Assembly (NCBI GenBank): GCA_937974645.1
Contig: CALJVH010000013.1
Coordinates: 10,897 to 74,896 of the forward strand
Reading direction: 5' to 3'
Length of the DNA stretch: 64,000 nt
Source of the DNA: an uncultured archaeon
GTDB taxonomy: Archaea > Thermoproteota > Nitrososphaeria_A > Caldarchaeales > Wolframiiraptoraceae
The notes under the pieces are model-generated. The model saw only the letters and a program-made list of their open reading frames with translations. It searched no databases and was not told the origin of the DNA. Within the stretch, counting starts at the first letter, position 1. Each line of letters opens with the position of its first letter. This document shows, in pieces, positions 4,340 to 27,600 of this stretch. A program made the position numbers and the translations under genes.

Positions 4340-4643
4340 GGCGGCGGCGCTCTCGAATCAATAGCTTTATTCATTCGTCTCAGAATGGCCAGAAAATAAT
4401 TCATGAAAAACGCCTATGTATGTTACCGGATATTCCATTTGCGGAAAATACTCAGAAAAACATTCCTAACTGCGGATAAGATCCATGTATATTCTCCAGG
4501 ATTACCTGGCGAATGACGGCGGGATAATTCTCTTCACAGAAACATTTTCGTGCATCACCTCAGCTGAATCAGTAATGGTGCCTCCAGATACCCTTCCCAA
4601 TCTATGTTTTAATAGGAGCGTATATGATTATGAGCTCTGGGAA

Positions 4644-4779
4644 AGCCCGGTCGTCTAGCGGCCAAACCCGGCTGGTCAGATCGACAGGGGCCTTGGATTC
4701 CAGGCTCTGGATCCATTTTCATGAGGGGACACCTCGCGCCCAATACCTGGAGACGCCGGTTCGAATCCGGCCCGGGCTA
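4644..4779 (+). tRNA. tRNA-Gln(CUG), about 136 nt, with a canonical 37/38 intron (about 34 nt) and an additional about 30 nt insertion in the D-arm region
   Basis: Acceptor AGCCCGG/CCGGGCU with discriminator A. D-loop AGCGGCCAA is typical of archaeal tRNA-Gln. Anticodon stem CCAGG/CCUGG with loop CUCUGG^A split by an intron. T-arm GCCGG-UUCGAAU-CCGGC. Confidence 0.6.
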
Positions 4780-4859
4780 TAACCTCCCCTCTTTCAATAT
4801 TCCCCCTATCGTATGTGCGAAGTAGATTGGGGAAAGAAAGGTGGGGTTGGGCTGGTTGG

Positions 4860-5600
4860 GCGTCGTTTCTAGTAGTCCGTGTCCTCTGAGATATTCTTCG
4901 AGCTGCCGTTGTTTTCTCTAGATTGTGAATCCCACGAGCTGATAGAACCTCAGCAGATGTGACACCCTGATATAGAGATAGTAGACGTTCCTCTTCCTCA
5001 TGTATGTCTTCCCCCTCTCCTTGTTAAAGATGGAGGTTCCTTTCTTTCCTTGTAGATGTGGGCCCGTCGCCTCCGATCCCCCAGACCATGTAAGAGTTTC
5101 TGGATGTATTTGAGGAGGCGTCTATCCGAGTTGTAGCATATAATGTCTCCATCGCCTCTATCTGCATATTCCTCGCTGTCGAAGAATCCTCTCAGGAAGC
5201 TCCTCGCACAATCCTCGGAATGCTCCACGAACCGTCTTATCCCATCTATATCGATGGGCTTTCTTAATAGGTCGTAGAGGGCTTTCGACCGAACCCGCAC
5301 CACAAACAATTCCCCCCTCACTGCTGGCCTCGGCGGACTCCTGCCGAGAACTTTCCCAAGCATCTCGCGAATTCCTCTATGAGCTCCCTGTCCTTGGCCC
5401 TTGCGTCGATCACATACTGGCCGCTTCTTATGCTGATTTTACAGGCTGACCCATCCCCTGCTACAACGCCTATGATGTAAGCGAGCTCGGGAGACGGCTT
5501 TAAGAGGAATCCCTGGATGAGTTTGAGGAGTCGATTAGGCAGTCCGCGTGACACCCAAGTAAGAGAGCCGCAGATAACCGAGCCGCTGTAGCCTCATAGA
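4860..5600 (-). pseudogene. Decayed paralog of the LAGLIDADG-family gene at 49996..51078. Frameshifted, with an internal stop and a truncated N-terminus.
   Basis: ORFs 5318..5554 and 4998..5363 plus a downstream frame encoding ...LLRFYQLVGFTI* align colinearly with the intact copy (LAYIIGVVAGDGSACK, FLRGFFDSEEY). Conserved 3' flank next to a tRNA. Confidence 0.6.
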
Positions 5601-20875: not shown

Positions 20876-21568
20876 TCAGGGCTGAGTATGAGAGCCCGTC
20901 CTATCCTTGATCTTCCTGAGAAACTTGCTCAACGAGCTCGCGAGCTTATCACTCCAATAACCGAACTCGGCTTCGATGGAAACAGAGAGATCTGGTCCCA
21001 CTCCTCCAACAATATATTTCAGCTCCATAGTCTCAATGCCCCTTAATGTGCTCTCCAAAAGCTTCCTTCTCTGAATCCCAATGGAGACGGGGACAACCAT
21101 TACCTCTCCCTTCAAGTTTATCCTGAAGATCTTGAAATTGAGATCCTGAAGTCTTCTCGTCTTCGCATACTTGACAGGATCTATGACCAAGGCCACCGCC
21201 TTAGGGAACAGCCTTTGATACAGCTTCTGGGTCTCGATGTCTATCGCTGAGAGAAATACCTCGAAGCCCGGATGAGAGTGATACCAGCCAACGATATATA
21301 GCCCGGGCCTATTCCTAAGAACCCACTCCGCCGCCGTGGCGATTGTTTCCTCCTCGAGATAAACGAAGCCCGGCGTGGATTTCTGCTCACCCGTTATAGC
21401 ATCCCAAACCTCAAGTATATCACCTCTTTTCAAGTATTTCCCAACAAGGAGGCCCGCGACCTCCTTGTTCAAATCATCTAAAGCATGTTTTATCATCTTC
21501 CCCAGCGCCAGCGGATAGATTCTAGCTCTCATGCAGGAGAAAATGCTATTCAAGATGGATTTTAACAT
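20876..21568 (-). CDS. JAMM/MPN+ metalloprotease, Rpn11/BRCC36-like deubiquitinase
   Basis: Conserved Glu (LEEE) followed by GWYHSHPGFEVFLSAID, which is the H-x-H-x7-S-x2-D JAMM zinc motif. Divergent from the Ub-E2-E1-RING genes. Confidence 0.85.
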   Translation of the reverse strand: MLKSILNSIFSCMRARIYPLALGKMIKHALDDLNKEVAGLLVGKYLKRGDILEVWDAITGEQKSTPGFVYLEEETIATAAEWVLRNRPGLYIVGWYHSHPGFEVFLSAIDIETQKLYQRLFPKAVALVIDPVKYAKTRRLQDLNFKIFRINLKGEVMVVPVSIGIQRRKLLESTLRGIETMELKYIVGGVGPDLSVSIEAEFGYWSDKLASSLSKFLRKIKDRTGSHTQP

Positions 21569-21732: not shown

Positions 21733-21969
21733 ATGAAAATTAGAATCGTCCCTGCTGTGGGAGGAGGTAATCCTATAGAGCTTGAAGTTTCACCCTCCAC
21801 GACTATCGGAGCTATCAGGGCCAAGGTGTGTGCCATGAAAAAGCTTCCACCCGATACGACGAGACTCACTTATAGAGGCAGAGCTCTCAAAGATACGGAA
21901 ACACTCGAATCGATTGGGGCGCAGGATGGAGATAAGCTTATACTGATAACTAGGACTGTCGGAGGGTAA
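21733..21969 (+). CDS. Ubiquitin-like protein (eukaryote-type ubiquitin homolog) terminating directly in Gly-Gly
   Basis: 78 aa, MKIRIV..IELEVSPSTTIGAIRAKV...PPDTTRLTYRGRALKDTETLESIGAQDGDKLILITRTVGG*. Colinear with ubiquitin ([58 protein letters not shown]). Confidence 0.9.
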   Translation: MKIRIVPAVGGGNPIELEVSPSTTIGAIRAKVCAMKKLPPDTTRLTYRGRALKDTETLESIGAQDGDKLILITRTVGG

Positions 21970-22038: not shown

Positions 22039-22518
22039 TTGAAAACACAGCTTCCAGAGACCCTGTGGAGTAGGAGACTGGCGCTAGAGTATAAGTTGAT
22101 GCGGGAGAATGAGCCCACCTTCGACATAGTGGACAATCAGTTAACCCATTATCGGGGCGTAATAATCGGAGAGGGGCTTTATGAGGGCGGATTCTTTAAG
22201 ATCGAGATAATAGTTCCGCGAGCATTCCCGTATATGCCGCCTGACATAATTTGGTGGACGAGGATATGGCATCCGAACTTCACGGATGAAGTTCCTGCGA
22301 GGATCTGTGAGTCCATTTTCAAAAATGATTGGAGCCCCTCGCTTCACCTCTTCTCTGTGGTGGAGGCCTTAAGAAATCTCCTCAATAATCCGAACCCGGA
22401 GGATCCGCTGAATACCTTCGCCGCGGCGGAGATGAAGTACAGGCCGGATATCTTCGAGGCCAGGGTCAAGAGCTATATCGAGTTATATGCTAGGCCGGAG
22501 TATGCTTTCCAAGAGTAG
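22039..22518 (+). CDS. E2 ubiquitin-conjugating enzyme (UBC fold)
   Basis: N-terminal RRLALEYKLM. HPN motif with catalytic Cys: IWHPNFTDEVPARICESIFKNDWSPSL. Confidence 0.85.
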   Translation: MKTQLPETLWSRRLALEYKLMRENEPTFDIVDNQLTHYRGVIIGEGLYEGGFFKIEIIVPRAFPYMPPDIIWWTRIWHPNFTDEVPARICESIFKNDWSPSLHLFSVVEALRNLLNNPNPEDPLNTFAAAEMKYRPDIFEARVKSYIELYARPEYAFQE

Positions 22519-22587: not shown

Positions 22588-23766
22588 ATGATCGAAGAGG
22601 GGCGTAACCTCGAGCGATATGATCGGCAGCTCAGGATTGAGGGGTGGAATCAGGAGAATCTTACCAAAGCTAGGGTTGTGATCGCGGGCGTCGGAGCAAC
22701 AGGTTGTGAAGTCTCTAAAAACCTCGCATTAATGGGTGTTGGAAAACTAGTCCTAGTTGATAATGATGTTGTCGAGTTGTCAAATCTGAGCAGACAGATG
22801 CTCTTTCTAGAAGATGATATAGGTAGGCCGAAGGCCATAGTTGCAGCGGATAGGCTGAAAAAAATGAATCCACTTATAAACATTGAAGCATATTTCGAGG
22901 ATGTTAGAAATCTTGATGTGACGGTCTTTGAGGAGGCGGATGTGCTGATATCGTGTCTTGACAACTGGCCCGTGAGAAGATGGATGAACTCCCTAGCAAT
23001 TGAGCTTAATAAGCCGCTCGTGGATCTAGCGATGGAGGGCTTCTATGCCAATCTTCAAGTCGTAATCCCGAAAAGGACAGCATGCTTGGAATGCCATGGA
23101 GAAGATCTGATACCGCAAGAGGCTCAGCTTGCCGAATGCACTCTGAGAAGAAGAAGGCCGGAAGACCTCGTTCAAGATCTGAAGAATGCGGGCATCGAAA
23201 TAAGCACGAAAGTTGCTGAGAAGCTCTTCGAGCACGATATTAAGACTATCTATGATCTGAAGTATGCTCAAGAGGGAGTGTTGATAAAGCTTGATAAGAA
23301 GACCCTTAAAGTGGTTAAGGAGATAAGGGAGAGGCTGAGGCCGAAGCTCCCCGCACTTCAAAGCGTTGCCGCAATGATCTCAGGACTAGCCTCTACAGAG
23401 ATCGTTAAGATACTTCATAGAGATGATCTCGGAGAACTCGTTAAAGGGCTTTTTGTATATGATGGCCTTGCAGGCCAGTTCACGGTCGTCGAGCTCGAGA
23501 GAAATCCTGAATGCTTCGTTTGTGGAGATTTTGTCGAGGAGGAGTTGACAATTACCATCAAGCCAAGTGAATCGATACTCGAGTTGAAAAAGAGGGTCGC
23601 GGAGATATTCAGAATCCCAGATCCCGAGATACTTTACCGGGAATGGAGACTCCCAGATGATAAGAAGATTTCAGAAACAGGGATCAGGGAGAATGACACA
23701 ATATATATTACTACCAGCAGGAGGTTTATGCCCCTGCAATTAAGAATTCAGATGATTCAGGGGTGA
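22588..23766 (+). CDS. E1-like ubiquitin-activating enzyme (ThiF/MoeB/UBA fold) with C-terminal beta-grasp-like domain
   Basis: RYDRQ start. Nucleotide-binding GVGATGCEVSKNLALMGVGKLVLVDNDVVELSNLSRQ. Zn motif CLECHG. Candidate catalytic Cys in AECTL. C-terminal LTITIKPSESILELKKRVAEIF... resembles a Ub-fold domain. Confidence 0.85.
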   Translation: MIEEGRNLERYDRQLRIEGWNQENLTKARVVIAGVGATGCEVSKNLALMGVGKLVLVDNDVVELSNLSRQMLFLEDDIGRPKAIVAADRLKKMNPLINIEAYFEDVRNLDVTVFEEADVLISCLDNWPVRRWMNSLAIELNKPLVDLAMEGFYANLQVVIPKRTACLECHGEDLIPQEAQLAECTLRRRRPEDLVQDLKNAGIEISTKVAEKLFEHDIKTIYDLKYAQEGVLIKLDKKTLKVVKEIRERLRPKLPALQSVAAMISGLASTEIVKILHRDDLGELVKGLFVYDGLAGQFTVVELERNPECFVCGDFVEEELTITIKPSESILELKKRVAEIFRIPDPEILYREWRLPDDKKISETGIRENDTIYITTSRRFMPLQLRIQMIQG

Positions 23767-23773
23767 TAGCGAT

Positions 23774-24007
23774 TTGAAAAGAATAACAATAGATGAAGAG
23801 GAAAAAGCGGGCGACTGGAATCTTGAGTTCGAGGAGGAGAAAAAGATAGATATATGCCCCGTTTGCTCCGCGGAGATACATGAGGGAATGCCTATTTTCG
23901 AGTGCCCCTTCTGTGGAAACATTATGCATGCGAAATGCGTCCAGCCATGGATAGATGAGCGGGGAACCTGTCCAATATGCAAAAGATCTTTATCACAGAG
24001 GACCTAA
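23774..24007 (+). CDS. Small RING-like zinc finger protein (C4HC3 spacing), candidate E3. TTG start 8 nt after the E1 stop.
   Basis: C-x2-C-x12-C-x2-C-x4-H-x2-C-x10-C-x2-C (ICPVC...ECPFCGNIMHAKCVQPWIDERGTCPICK) with the conserved Trp after ligand 6. Confidence 0.75.
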   Translation: MKRITIDEEEKAGDWNLEFEEEKKIDICPVCSAEIHEGMPIFECPFCGNIMHAKCVQPWIDERGTCPICKRSLSQRT

Positions 24008-24031: not shown

Positions 24032-24385
24032 TTGAACAAAACGAGTGGTGGCGGTATAATCTTAAAGCCTAAATACCTCGAAACTCCCAAGGGCAGGATA
24101 CCGACCTATGATTTTGTAATGGGGCTGGCGAAGGCCATCGATATTCTGGATGAGGTGGTTGCGGAGCTTGAGGATAAGGTGAAGAATTTGGAGCCGGCTG
24201 GCGTACCAGAGCTAAGTGACCTGAAAAATAGGCTGGAAAGCGTCGAAGAAAGCTTGAAAAATTTGGAGAAAAGGTTGGAGCTCGAACTCGAGGATTTCAA
24301 TGATAAGTTGACGACGTTAACGGATGTGATTAATGAGCTCGCAGAAAAAGTTCAGAGGATCGAGGGGAGTATGTCTAGGGGCTGA
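24032..24385 (+). CDS. Hypothetical coiled-coil protein
   Basis: Heptad-rich acidic sequence; no enzymatic motif. Confidence 0.3.
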   Translation: MNKTSGGGIILKPKYLETPKGRIPTYDFVMGLAKAIDILDEVVAELEDKVKNLEPAGVPELSDLKNRLESVEESLKNLEKRLELELEDFNDKLTTLTDVINELAEKVQRIEGSMSRG

Positions 24386-25214
24386 CGACAGCACGCCTCA
24401 TCTCGGCGATCAGTTTCTCAAGATTCACTCGTTTATTCTCGAGTTCTCTTAGCTCGGTTTCAAGTCTTCTCTTCCGCTCTTCTAGCATATTCAGCTCGCT
24501 CCTTAGCTGGAGGACCCGCTTTTCAAGCTCTTCCGCTTCCTCCTCCTTCTCCTTCAGCTTAGATAGCTCCTGCCTTAGCTCGGCTTCCTTCCTGATAAGC
24601 CGCTCCATCCGTATCTCCCTTATCTTGAAATCTCTGAGAAGCCCCTTGAACATATTCTCAAGCCTATTTCCTAGTTCCTCAAGCTCTTTGAAGTAGGTAT
24701 TTTCTAGCTCCGAGATCTTACGCTCCAGCCCGAGCTTTCTTTCCTCAAATTCCCTCAGCTCAGCTTCTCTTAATGCGAGCTCCCTCTCTTTCGCATCGAG
24801 CTCGCTCCCCCATTTCTTTAGTTCCTGCCTGATTACGGAGAGCTCGCTCTTCTCCTTTAACAGTGCCTCAATCTCCTTCTTGATTACCTCGCGCTCCCTG
24901 CTCAGTGTATCAACAATATCTTTTAAGCCTTCTTGAACGGAGAGAAGGGTACTTTCGTAAAACTTGACTTGATTGAGGTCTTCTGAAATCTTTTCAGCCT
25001 TCTCGAGAAATGTCGCCAGCTTGACCCTTGTGCTCTCTGGTTGTGATAATATCGCTCTGAGAAGGGATAGGATCTCCGCAAGCCTAGACTCCATGCTCTT
25101 CAACGCATCATCGAAGGATGCTACCTGCGCGGAGATCTTTTGCTCTAGATTGCTTAACTTTTCATTTATCCTATCCTCCAGCTCCTCGACCTTCTTCCCG
25201 CCAAATGGTGGCAT
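24375..25214 (-). CDS. Long coiled-coil protein (SMC/intermediate-filament-like heptad repeats)
   Basis: 279 aa of nearly continuous E/K/R/L heptads. Confidence 0.4.
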   Translation of the reverse strand: MPPFGGKKVEELEDRINEKLSNLEQKISAQVASFDDALKSMESRLAEILSLLRAILSQPESTRVKLATFLEKAEKISEDLNQVKFYESTLLSVQEGLKDIVDTLSREREVIKKEIEALLKEKSELSVIRQELKKWGSELDAKERELALREAELREFEERKLGLERKISELENTYFKELEELGNRLENMFKGLLRDFKIREIRMERLIRKEAELRQELSKLKEKEEEAEELEKRVLQLRSELNMLEERKRRLETELRELENKRVNLEKLIAEMRRAVVSP

Positions 25215-25315: not shown

Positions 25316-26062
25316 ATGCTGAGCCCTAATGGGAGCTGTGCGAGGTTGCTCACAACAAGAGAGGAAGTAATGTCCAGGTTGTATAAGATCGGGTCAAGCG
25401 CCGCCGCCATGGGAGCAATTCATATTCTCACGCTTCTCTTAAGCTGGTATGTTCAAGTGATCGATGAGACTGAAAGATCTATTCAGGGCCTTGTAAGCCC
25501 TTACGCGACCATGATATCTCTTGTCGGGGGAATTATGGCGGGCATAGGGGTAATCATAATACACTTCGTCAAGAGGCTTAGGCTTATGAAGAACATTTTA
25601 GGAGCCTCGATTATCATGGGCGGCTTTCTTGCAACGGTCTCGCCAATATACTCTTATTGGTTCTGGCTACTAGATTTATCAAGCTACTCGAGATTTGATC
25701 TCGGATTCTTCGTAGCAACCTTCACAGGAGTAATCCTGCTAGCAATAGGAGCGCTGGCATTACTCACACCGGTGAAAGAAGAGGTAATCCCGATGCCTTT
25801 CGCCACTCCACAACCGACCACCCCAGAATTATTTGAGGCTGGTGTGGCCGCTCCAAGCCCAACTAGGCCCGCGACCACCAAGCTCGTCCCAGCGCCGGAT
25901 GTCGAGGAGGCAATATGTAGTATATGCTTTGACTTTATACCAGAGGGAGAGGCAGTGAGGTGTAGTAACTGTGACGCAATATTCCATAAAGGATGCATTG
26001 ATTCTTGGGTAGGCATTAATGGAACATGCCCAAGTTGTAAAGCTGTTGTTATAGAGGGCTAG
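25316..26062 (+). CDS. Membrane protein with four predicted TM helices, a Pro/Thr-rich linker and a C-terminal C4HC3 RING-like zinc finger. Candidate membrane-anchored E3.
   Basis: C-terminus CSICFDFIPEGEAVRCSNCDAIFHKGCIDSWVGINGTCPSCK shows C-x2-C-x11-C-x2-C-x4-H-x2-C-x10-C-x2-C, same spacing as ORF 23774..24007. Hydrophobic segments at about aa 25-50, 62-85, 95-120 and 130-152. Confidence 0.7.
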   Translation: MLSPNGSCARLLTTREEVMSRLYKIGSSAAAMGAIHILTLLLSWYVQVIDETERSIQGLVSPYATMISLVGGIMAGIGVIIIHFVKRLRLMKNILGASIIMGGFLATVSPIYSYWFWLLDLSSYSRFDLGFFVATFTGVILLAIGALALLTPVKEEVIPMPFATPQPTTPELFEAGVAAPSPTRPATTKLVPAPDVEEAICSICFDFIPEGEAVRCSNCDAIFHKGCIDSWVGINGTCPSCKAVVIEG

Positions 26063-26112: not shown

Positions 26113-27600
26113 ATGCAACTTAAAGCCGATAAAGGCGTGGGCAGAAGGTTTGAAGAGCTGATAAAGCTCGCTCTCGAGAAGGGATTCTTCGCTTCTTCTT
26201 CAGAGATTTATGGAGATGCTCCTGCGGGTTTCTGGGATTATGGTCCGCTTGGAGCTGCGATGAAGAGGAAGTTCATTGAGCTCTGGAGGAGGGAGCTTGT
26301 GAGAAGGGATGAAATGCTGGAGATTGACGGCGCGCAAATCCTCTCCAAGAGCGTCTTCAAAGCTTCTGGGCACCTGGATAGCTTCGTTGATCCAATAGCG
26401 CGATGCAGTAAATGTGGGGCGATATATCGTGTTGATAAGCTGATAGAGGAGAGGACCGAATTGCATATTCCCGAGAGAATGAGCTTAGATGAGATGAAAA
26501 GGATCGTGGAGAATAATGGGGTTAGGTGTACTCGATGCGGAGGCGAGCTCACCGGCTATTCCTACTTCAACATGATGTTCAGGGTTGGCGTCGGGGTCGC
26601 GGAGGCCGATGCTTATCTTAGGCCGGAAACATGCCAAAACATCTTCGTGGACTTTCTCAGAGTATACAAGACAATGAGGAGAAAACTGCCCTTTGCGATA
26701 GCGCAATATGGGAAGAGCTTTAGGAATGAGATCTCGCCTAGGCAAGGTCTCCTCAGAATGAGAGAATTTTACCAGGCCGAGATAGAAGTCTTCTTTAACC
26801 CAGACAAGGCCGATGACTTCCCGAAGGCTAATGCGATAATGGATTATGAGCTACGGCTTCAGCAAGTCGGCGAGAGCGAGCCTGCCGAAATCACGTGTCA
26901 GGACGCCCTAGGCCAAGGACTTATCTCCAGCAAGCTCGTCGCCTACTATCTCGCCCTGATCCAGCAATTCTATGAAAAGGTGGGGATTCCTAGAGAGAGG
27001 ATTAGATTGAGGCAGCTCGGAGAGGATGAGAAGGCGTTCTATGCCGTCGAGGCATGGGATCTGGAGGTTGAGACCAGCCTCGGGTGGATAGAGCTCGTCG
27101 CCTGCAACAATAGGGGAGACCACGATCTTGGAGGTCATCAGAGGATGAGCGGTCATGAAATAGAGGTAATGGACGATGGGCAAAAAGTCCTACCGCACGT
27201 ATTCGAGCTTTCGATGGGGGTGGATAGAAGCCTATACTGCATACTCGAGAACTTCCTCAGCCTCAAGAATGGAAAGATCATGCTTAGATTGCCTCCCTAC
27301 CTCGCGCCAGTAGATGCAGCTATTTTACCACTGGTCTCAAGAGAGCCGTTGATCAGTAAAGCGTTGGAGGTCTATGATGAGCTGAGAAGAGATTTTGACG
27401 TGGAATATGATGATTCAGGAAGTATTGGAAGAAGATACATGAGATATGATGAGATAGGCGTCCCCATATGCATCACCATTGATCACCAGACGATCGAGGA
27501 TGAAAGCATTACAATCAGATTCAGAGATGCTGCGCATCAGATCAGGATTGATATAAGTGAATTGCCATATCTTCTAAGGGAGTGGTTGGCATATCCCTGA
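26113..27600 (+). CDS. glyS: Glycyl-tRNA synthetase, archaeal/eukaryal alpha2 type
   Basis: Class II motifs FRNEISPRQGLLRMREFYQAEIEVF; Zn ribbon CSKCG...CTRCGG; anticodon-binding C-terminal domain. Confidence 0.9.
   Translation: MQLKADKGVGRRFEELIKLALEKGFFASSSEIYGDAPAGFWDYGPLGAAMKRKFIELWRRELVRRDEMLEIDGAQILSKSVFKASGHLDSFVDPIARCSKCGAIYRVDKLIEERTELHIPERMSLDEMKRIVENNGVRCTRCGGELTGYSYFNMMFRVGVGVAEADAYLRPETCQNIFVDFLRVYKTMRRKLPFAIAQYGKSFRNEISPRQGLLRMREFYQAEIEVFFNPDKADDFPKANAIMDYELRLQQVGESEPAEITCQDALGQGLISSKLVAYYLALIQQFYEKVGIPRERIRLRQLGEDEKAFYAVEAWDLEVETSLGWIELVACNNRGDHDLGGHQRMSGHEIEVMDDGQKVLPHVFELSMGVDRSLYCILENFLSLKNGKIMLRLPPYLAPVDAAILPLVSREPLISKALEVYDELRRDFDVEYDDSGSIGRRYMRYDEIGVPICITIDHQTIEDESITIRFRDAAHQIRIDISELPYLLREWLAYP

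Follow-up and report, generated by a model that had tools for sequence, protein, structure and literature searches.

A C4HC3 variant of the RING finger in a soluble and a membrane protein of a Caldarchaeales ubiquitin gene cluster

Two RING genes in a ubiquitin operon

The DNA considered here, a 64-kb stretch from an uncultured archaeon related to Candidatus (Ca.) Wolframiiraptor (hereafter the window), carries a ubiquitin operon of the Caldiarchaeum type, in which the genes for a JAB deubiquitinase, ubiquitin, the conjugating enzyme E2, the activating enzyme E1, and a small RING protein are clustered. Two proteins encoded at this locus contain a zinc finger of the kind found in E3 ubiquitin ligases. 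The original prediction, made for positions 23774-24007, was that both fingers have Cys at the fourth ligand position and His at the fifth, i.e., that they are C4HC3 rather than C3HC4 fingers, and this order is indeed seen in both, although the second finger lies outside 23774-24007, in the open reading frame (ORF) at 25316-26062.

23774..24007, plus strand: small soluble RING protein of 77 amino acids, orthologue of srfp of Ca. Caldiarchaeum subterraneum (Pfam zf-RING_2, 38.6 bits)
25316..26062, plus strand: tetraspan membrane RING protein of 248 amino acids (Pfam zf-RING_2, 39.2 bits)

The gene for the small protein starts with TTG, eight bases past the stop codon of the upstream gene, and an identical 77-residue protein (P0001) is present in a public protein collection. 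The Cys and His residues of the protein are C28, C31, H36, C44, C47, H52, C55, C66, and C69, and its RING domain (residues 28-69, nucleotides 23855-23980) has the pattern C-x2-C-x12-C-x2-C-x4-H-x2-C-x10-C-x2-C, accompanied by V30, W59, and P67 at E2-contact positions and by K70 at the position of the linchpin. The additional His that had been pointed out in the segment SAEIHEG, between ligands 2 and 3, is present as H36 but is not conserved; the same column holds H, Y, D, E, I, L, or G in the homologues, which were collected by a word-indexed search with the 77-residue protein (6 relatives) and by a query with the domain alignment (about 20 more). Because H36 varies in this way, it is not a ligand, and its candidacy as an alternative ligand was rejected. 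Residues 1-27 (window positions 23774-23854) are modeled with low confidence (predicted local distance difference test, pLDDT, of 65-71), and the N terminus of the small family bears a K-x-G-x-W-D/N motif in which G13 is nearly invariant and W15 is invariant. The G-x-W-D part of this motif may serve as a handle for a substrate or partner, a speculation that follows the analogy of an Asgard RING E3 whose N-loop binds substrate (bioRxiv 10.1101/2023.07.25.550441). The same N-terminal motif occurs also in some distant matches, e.g., P0060 and P0063.

The membrane protein is 248 residues long when the longest ORF is taken and 238 residues long in public gene calls, which would place its start near nucleotide 25346. 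It has four hydrophobic segments, and its model contains four predicted helices, all with pLDDT above 90 (transmembrane helices TM1-TM4; residues 15-39, 62-82, 88-118, and 129-150), which confirms that the two fingers belong to a soluble and a membrane form. Following the helices are a disordered, Pro-rich linker of about 30 residues (about 155-185) and a C-terminal RING domain (residues 201-241, nucleotides 25916-26038), whose ligands C201, C204, C216, C219, H224, C227, C238, and C241 are arranged as C-x2-C-x11-C-x2-C-x4-H-x2-C-x10-C-x2-C. The spacing of the two fingers had been described as identical, which is correct except for loop 1, where the small form has 12 residues and the membrane form has 11. 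Further key residues of the latter are I203, W231, P239, and K242, and in the 33-member membrane family K242 joins the invariant positions. From the abundance of Lys and Arg in the N terminus and loop 2-3 and the acidic character of loop 1-2, the Pro-rich linker and the RING domain are predicted to reside in the cytoplasm, together with E1 and E2. The RING domain is modeled with pLDDT 90-96, and Foldseek matches this part of the model to RNF165. In the model of residues 15-150, extracellular loop 1 forms a beta-hairpin and loop 3 contains one strand, and the best PDB folds that Foldseek finds for the four-helix domain are claudins, TARP gamma subunits, and the Cav gamma subunit. These matches are weak (E = 5e-4 to 1e-2, target TM-score of about 0.5, root-mean-square deviation, rmsd, of 5-6 A, and 12-15% identity), and a claudin/PMP22-like tetraspan domain fused to a RING domain would be unusual for an archaeon.

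Ligand order and family of the fingers

An alignment of 17 members of the two families shows no variation in the eight ligands, W59, or P67, and the two RING domains of the window share 41% identity over 44 residues (E = 1e-10). When all six reading frames of the 64-kb window are translated, a general RING pattern matches these two fingers and nothing else. The ligand pattern is not a chance match, and the C4HC3 order, which is found in every RING copy of the related loci described below, is real and conserved, being a one-ligand variation on RING-H2.

The original prediction assigned this order to the RING-CH/PHD arrangement, but the family and fold comparisons point to RING-H2 instead. The Pfam model of RING-H2, zf-RING_2 (PF13639), scores 38.6 bits with the small form and 39.2 bits with the membrane form against a cutoff of 27.3, and it matches all 31 family members tested (best E = 7.9e-12). 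When the PDB was searched with the RING-domain profile, the top matches were EL5 (2.6e-12), RLIM (5e-12), Arkadia (1.5e-11), and RNF38 (7e-11), followed by RNF13, RNF165, RNF126, and RNF4, so that RING-H2 E3s span E values from 1e-12 to 1e-9, with 26-39% identity. The AlphaFold2 model of the small form, built from a 26-sequence alignment, has a mean pLDDT of 77.5, with 82-90 in the RING domain, and shows the beta-beta-alpha layout of a RING; its best Foldseek matches in the PDB are RNF126, RNF165, EL5, RNF13, RNF12, and RNF38, with rmsd of 1.4-2.0 A over 46-51 columns. A HMMER search with the combined family profile against 1.84 billion representative proteins gave 76,378 hits at E <= 1e-3, and 112 of the best 149 new representatives among them have the canonical C-x-H-x2-H-x2-C, while 14 have C-x2-C-x4-H-x2-C, several of these being members of the two archaeal families, and 2 have the RING-CH pattern. 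By Pfam, the PDB profile search, the AlphaFold model, and the search of 1.84 billion proteins alike, both domains are nearest to RING-H2 E3s. Among the matches there are also related fingers of the form C-x2-C-x12-C-P-x-C-G-x3-H-x2-[H/D]-L-x-E-W...C-P-x-C (P0060, P0074, P0078, P0083, P0084, P0094, P0101, P0187, P0199, and P0200), in which His or Asp takes the place of Cys as ligand 6 (C4H2C2 or C4HDC2); some of them are found in proteins of 200-450 residues and others in proteins of about 80 residues.

The C4HC3 order and the multi-pass membrane nature of one of the two proteins are reminiscent of RING-CH (RINGv) ligases such as MARCH, K3, and Doa10, and a survey has filed C4HC3 fingers as "RINGv" by order alone (PMC3166285). 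Both fingers do have the order of RING-CH (PF12906), but they depart from its C-x-C-x(5-7)-H-x2-C spacing, having C-x2-C-x4-H in the corresponding part. The membrane form matches 22 Pfam families in all at E <= 1, and RINGv is not one of them; nor does RINGv occur among the 25 families most often matched over the 31 members. The RING-CH finger of K3 (1vyx) reaches 21.7 bits (E = 1.4e-3), compared with 49.6 bits for EL5. Together with the rarity of the RING-CH pattern among the best 149 representatives, these results make MARCH/K3-type fingers a hardly credible reading; membership in RING-CH was ruled out by the spacing and the lack of a RINGv match. For RING-CH the consensus spacing is C-x-C-x(5-7)-H.

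Another possible reading is that the fingers are PHD-type readers of peptides or histone tails and not E3 modules. Their central spacing equals the PHD consensus (PF00628, C4HC3 with C-x2-C-x(4-5)-H-x2-C), the cross-brace, binuclear fold class is the same, and weak PHD matches recur: 21.7 and 17.1 bits in Pfam for the small and membrane forms, E <= 0.01 in 26 of the 31 members, KMT2D, KMT2C, and PHF21A in the PDB, and MLL3 PHD6 in Foldseek. The Pfam scores, however, are below the cutoff of 24 and cover model positions 1-35 and 1-29 of 47, the PDB matches appear only at 1e-4 to 1e-3 and mostly over query positions 3-30, and MLL3 PHD6, the first PHD in the Foldseek list, stands at rank 30. In addition, the C-terminal half, which has C-P-x-C-[KR] and a Trp at the fourth position past ligand 6, aligns with RING-H2 and not with PHD, loop 2 has 10 residues, the genes are situated in an E1/E2/ubiquitin operon, and ubiquitylation in vitro depends on srfp, the orthologue of the small form (PMC5654768). 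A PHD identity is very improbable in the face of this evidence, and membership in that family was rejected on the basis of the sub-threshold, partial matches and the operon context.

Nor are the fingers closer to treble-clef zinc ribbons, an outcome that would have contradicted the original prediction. Scattered sub-threshold Pfam matches to Zn_ribbon_6, RUBY_RBDX, and DZR might suggest a single-zinc treble-clef or zinc-ribbon module in place of a binuclear cross-brace, but such zinc-ribbon or rubredoxin-like matches are expected because any C-x2-C pairs give them. The eight invariant ligands with RING spacing, which are consistent with two zinc sites, the full-length matches to RING models and solved RING domains, and the predicted beta-beta-alpha fold close to RING-H2 leave the single-zinc reading with almost no likelihood; the invariant ligands and the predicted fold ruled it out.

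The prokaryotic RING families deserve more attention. The Prok-RING_1 family is associated with ubiquitin-like/JAB gene neighborhoods. The small form passes the cutoff of its model (PF14446) marginally, with 30.2 bits against 29.1, and 24 of the 31 members match it at E <= 0.01 (best 5.4e-9). The C-P-x-C-G...H knuckle that the fingers share with this family recurs in other proteins that are not RING-H2, including the C4H2C2 and C4HDC2 variants, and according to a review, C4HC3 is the configuration of prokaryotic RING domains (PMC11354881, second-hand, citing Burroughs et al. 2011). The fingers might accordingly belong to the prokaryotic RING families, having inherited C4HC3 from them and owing their likeness to RING-H2 to common ancestry. 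Against this, the Prok-RING_1 match of the small form is confined to model positions 5-36 of 54, i.e., the first two-thirds, and the membrane form scores 15.4 bits, below the cutoff, whereas the C-terminal half is RING-H2-like, zf-RING_2 outscores Prok-RING_1 for every member, and the nearest neighbors among the 1.84 billion proteins are mostly canonical RING-H2. A prokaryotic RING membership of this kind seems rather unlikely, though it deserves to be kept in mind.

How the C4HC3 order relates to RING-H2 can be read from the alignments, in which the HMMER comparisons with EL5, RLIM, Arkadia, and RNF38 and the MAFFT alignment with the RING-H2-type proteins P0061-P0066 agree on the correspondence of columns. 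C47 falls on ligand 3 of RING-H2, and H52 and C55 fall on ligands 5 and 6; where RING-H2 has the ligand-4 His, the small form has Asn49 (its relatives have Ala, Ser, or Thr) and the membrane form has Ala221. To supply the missing ligand there is a single invariant candidate, C44/C216, which lies three residues ahead of ligand 3. The C4HC3 order thus arises because the His-4 column is occupied by Asn or Ala and the invariant upstream Cys substitutes for it, and on this alignment the finger is best described as RING-H2-like with one ligand of the second zinc site shifted, C-x-H-x2-H-x2-C having become C-x2-C-x4-H-x2-C. In the cross-brace expected from such an alignment, C28/C201 and C31/C204 would be paired with H52/H224 and C55/C227 at zinc site 1, and C44/C216 and C47/C219 with C66/C238 and C69/C241 at zinc site 2.

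The conserved gene block and the origin of the two fingers

A scan with the E1 protein over one genome per species yielded 11 loci, all from metagenome-assembled genomes of Caldarchaeales/Nitrososphaeria, and a further, more distant genome supplied locus L012. The closest E1 proteins are those of Ca. Wolframiiraptor sinensis, allenii, and gerlachensis (80-82% identity), and the farthest found by the scan is that of Ca. Pelearchaeum (57%). The genes that accompany the two RING genes in the window are the following.

20876..21568, minus strand: JAB/MPN deubiquitinase, Rpn11-like, divergent from the operon (Pfam JAB PF01398, 64.3 bits against a cutoff of 22.5)
21733..21969, plus strand: ubiquitin-like modifier of 78 amino acids, ending in TVGG directly before the stop (Pfam ubiquitin PF00240, 51.8 bits)
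22039..22518, plus strand: E2 ubiquitin-conjugating enzyme (Pfam UQ_con PF00179, 100.2 bits)
22588..23766, plus strand: E1-like activating enzyme of the ThiF fold (Pfam ThiF, 207.3 bits)
24032..24385, plus strand: coiled-coil protein of 117 amino acids, directly 3' of the small RING gene (sub-threshold coiled-coil-type Pfam matches only)
24375..25214, minus strand: coiled-coil protein of 279 amino acids, between the two RING genes (sub-threshold coiled-coil-type Pfam matches only)
26113..27600, plus strand: class II aminoacyl-tRNA synthetase (homology to the L012 orthologue with tRNA-synt_2b and HGTP_anticodon)

The full order of this block, JAB, ubiquitin, E2, E1, small RING, 117-residue coiled-coil, 279-residue coiled-coil on the opposite strand, membrane RING, and aminoacyl-tRNA synthetase, is kept in L002, L004, L006, L007, L008, and L011; in the remaining related loci of the scan the contig stops before the position of the membrane RING gene. 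L012 keeps the block order too, with an E1 55% and a membrane RING protein 32% identical to those of the window. The small RING gene directly follows that of E1, with the divergent Rpn11/JAB gene at its conserved position, in the window and in those of the related loci (L001-L012) that are long enough. The ubiquitin-like modifier is 91-99% identical to that of the window in L001-L008 and L011, 83% in L009 and L010, and 74% in L012. Over L001-L008 and L011, identity is 71-94% for E2, 63-82% for E1, 33-83% for the small RING protein, and 49-83% for the membrane RING protein, and all components of the block are less similar in the distant L009, L010, and L012; the small E3 is the fastest-evolving component of the block. 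The E1 has a C-terminal ubiquitin-like domain; its residues 318-377 match the ubiquitin family with 27.4 bits (cutoff 25.4). The synthetase gene is syntenic in the related loci with 61-90% identity, reads as glycyl-tRNA synthetase-like in its sequence, and forms the conserved downstream limit of the block, probably lying outside the ubiquitin system. In L012, the ubiquitin gene as called encodes 93 residues, and an AIM24-family gene on the opposite strand (4509-5180) is inserted between those of E2 and E1, the operon being otherwise colinear.

The two coiled-coil genes converge at their 3' ends, where they overlap by 11 bases, and both are found between the RING genes in L001-L009 and L011, wherever the contig reaches. 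The gene for the 279-residue protein is syntenic in L001-L009, L011, and L012, with 35-77% identity; the contig of L010 ends inside the first coiled-coil gene, at the position of the 117-residue protein, and L012 has an unmatched ORF of 103 residues in place of that gene. The two proteins could be native substrates or adaptors of the ligases. With the C. subterraneum cascade in vitro, lysines in the coiled-coil of Rad50 were ubiquitylated. A literature search, incomplete in its coverage, found no description of the tetraspan membrane RING protein or of the two coiled-coil genes, nor any paper on archaeal RING proteins anchored in the membrane.

The original prediction also took the two fingers for paralogs and not for independent acquisitions, and the evidence on this point is mixed. 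The uncommon geometry C-x2-C-x4-H-x2-C (14 of the best 149 representatives) is common to both, and the two genes remain in one block down to 55% E1 identity. Reciprocal searches with hidden Markov models (HMMs) support the relationship in one direction only: the HMM of the membrane family gives the small-family proteins P0047 and P0052 scores of 56.5 and 48.9 bits, higher than any RING-H2 (best 45.5), whereas that of the small family ranks the best RING-H2 (45.1) over the membrane domains (38.6 at most). In a neighbor-joining tree of 68 domains with 100 bootstraps, the membrane family is recovered in 88 replicates and an exclusive clade of the small and membrane families in none, and the mean distance from the membrane family is about equal to the small family (0.625) and to RING-H2 (0.621). 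It is conceivable from these figures that each finger was separately derived from the wider RING pool and that the two genes are mere neighbors, with no duplication in the lineage. The comparison set of these tests, however, was the extreme top 150 of the 76,378 hits, which is biased against seeing paralogy, and the approximately 45 alignable columns of the domain are too few to resolve a separate origin, so that the tests are weak evidence either way. Separate derivation is a possibility to be taken seriously but a doubtful one, and we favor a common origin as plausible because the fingers are homologous, lie in one conserved block, and have an uncommon ligand geometry in common. If there was a duplication, it is older than the divergence of all lineages sampled.

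Predicted activity and evolutionary meaning

A eukaryote-type ubiquitin operon was first described in C. subterraneum (PMC3082918), and the motif C-X2-C-X11-C-X2-C-X4-H-X2-C-X10-C-X2-C was printed for CSUB_C1477 (srfp) by Nunoura in 2010 (PMC3082918). Hennell James in 2017 showed that srfp has E3 activity in vitro, that the mutation I30Q abolishes this activity and W58A and R69A impair it, and that the third and fourth ligands of the protein (C3/H4) are displaced, with an extra Cys, "C3B" (PMC5654768). The small protein of the window resembles srfp in its position directly after E1, the divergent Rpn11/JAB gene, its size class (small, about 75-90 residues), and the motif itself, in which loop 1 has 11 residues in C. 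subterraneum, as in the membrane form of the window, instead of 12. I30, W58, and R69 of srfp correspond to V30, W59, and K70 of the small form and to I203, W231, and K242 of the membrane form. Since the small protein is the orthologue of a published E3 whose motif had been printed, the central point of the original prediction was already known, and the ligand pattern of the small protein adds nothing new to the motif of 2010 and the displacement noted in 2017. The window differs from C. subterraneum in the organism, a Wolframiiraptor relative, and in the modifier. C. subterraneum is described as having a pro-ubiquitin that is cleaved by Rpn11, whereas the modifier of the window ends at GG without a pro-peptide, and C-terminal processing by Rpn11 is not needed because TVGG immediately precedes the stop.

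Both fingers retain the E2-contact surface of RING ligases, i.e., a hydrophobic residue between the first two ligands, a Trp at the fourth position past ligand 6, and a Pro after ligand 7, and also the basic linchpin residue after ligand 8 (K70/K242), and both should on this ground bind the thioester between ubiquitin and the E2 of the operon and activate direct transfer of ubiquitin to lysines. The 77-residue protein would act as a soluble E3, while the 248-residue protein would hold the same kind of catalytic module at the cytoplasmic face of the membrane by means of the four-helix anchor and the Pro-rich tether of about 30 residues, where it would presumably act on membrane-proximal targets. 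The likeness to eukaryotic RING-H2 E3s (EL5/ATL, RLIM/RNF12, Arkadia, RNF38, RNF13, and RNF165) comprises the best sequence and predicted-fold matches and the conserved Trp, C-P-x-C-[KR], and hydrophobic E2-contact residues, and for the membrane form it extends to the layout of a membrane anchor, a linker, and a C-terminal RING, as in ATL, RNF13/RMR, and Hrd1-type ligases. The transmembrane domain, in contrast, is unrelated to those of eukaryotic membrane E3s. We consider, with a probability of roughly 85%, that both ORFs encode RING-type E3 domains, cross-braced and homologous to RING-H2, of the eukaryote-like ubiquitin/E1/E2/RING/Rpn11 system of Caldarchaeales (Aigarchaeota).

Several points weigh against this conclusion. 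The C3H2C3 ligand set that defines RING-H2, with C-x-H-x2-H-x2-C, is present in neither finger: the ligand-4 His is gone, replaced by Asn or Ala, with a Cys three residues before ligand 3 instead. The assignment of the zinc sites comes from the alignment and a predicted model. Because the small form marginally passes Prok-RING_1 over the first two-thirds of the domain, the lineage may be equally near to eukaryotic RING-H2 and to the prokaryotic RING families. The E3 activity shown by others is that of the small form of C. subterraneum, and an equivalent activity of the membrane form is predicted from its sequence.

A wider scenario can be drawn from these observations, though an unlikely one in its entirety. 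The C4HC3 finger might be the ancestral archaeal state from which RING-H2 arose by the migration of one ligand, which would make it a living intermediate on the way from PHD-like or prokaryotic RING fingers to RING-H2, and the tetraspan, claudin-like RING protein, encoded four genes past E1, might be a second, undescribed E3 that predates and works like the membrane RING E3s of eukaryotes, with the coiled-coil proteins as possible adaptors or substrates. For the prokaryotic forerunner of eukaryotic ubiquitylation, the best model is the archaeal ubiquitin/E1/E2/RING operon, and the loss of His-4 with an upstream Cys in its stead bears on how the ligand sets of RING, PHD, and prokaryotic RING fingers are interconverted. 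The membrane RING gene is kept in the block in every sampled lineage with a long enough contig, down to 55% E1 identity. Activity of the membrane form would imply that at least two E3s and an arm directed at the membrane already existed in the ancestral archaeal system, which would be relevant to the origin of the ubiquitylation of membrane proteins.

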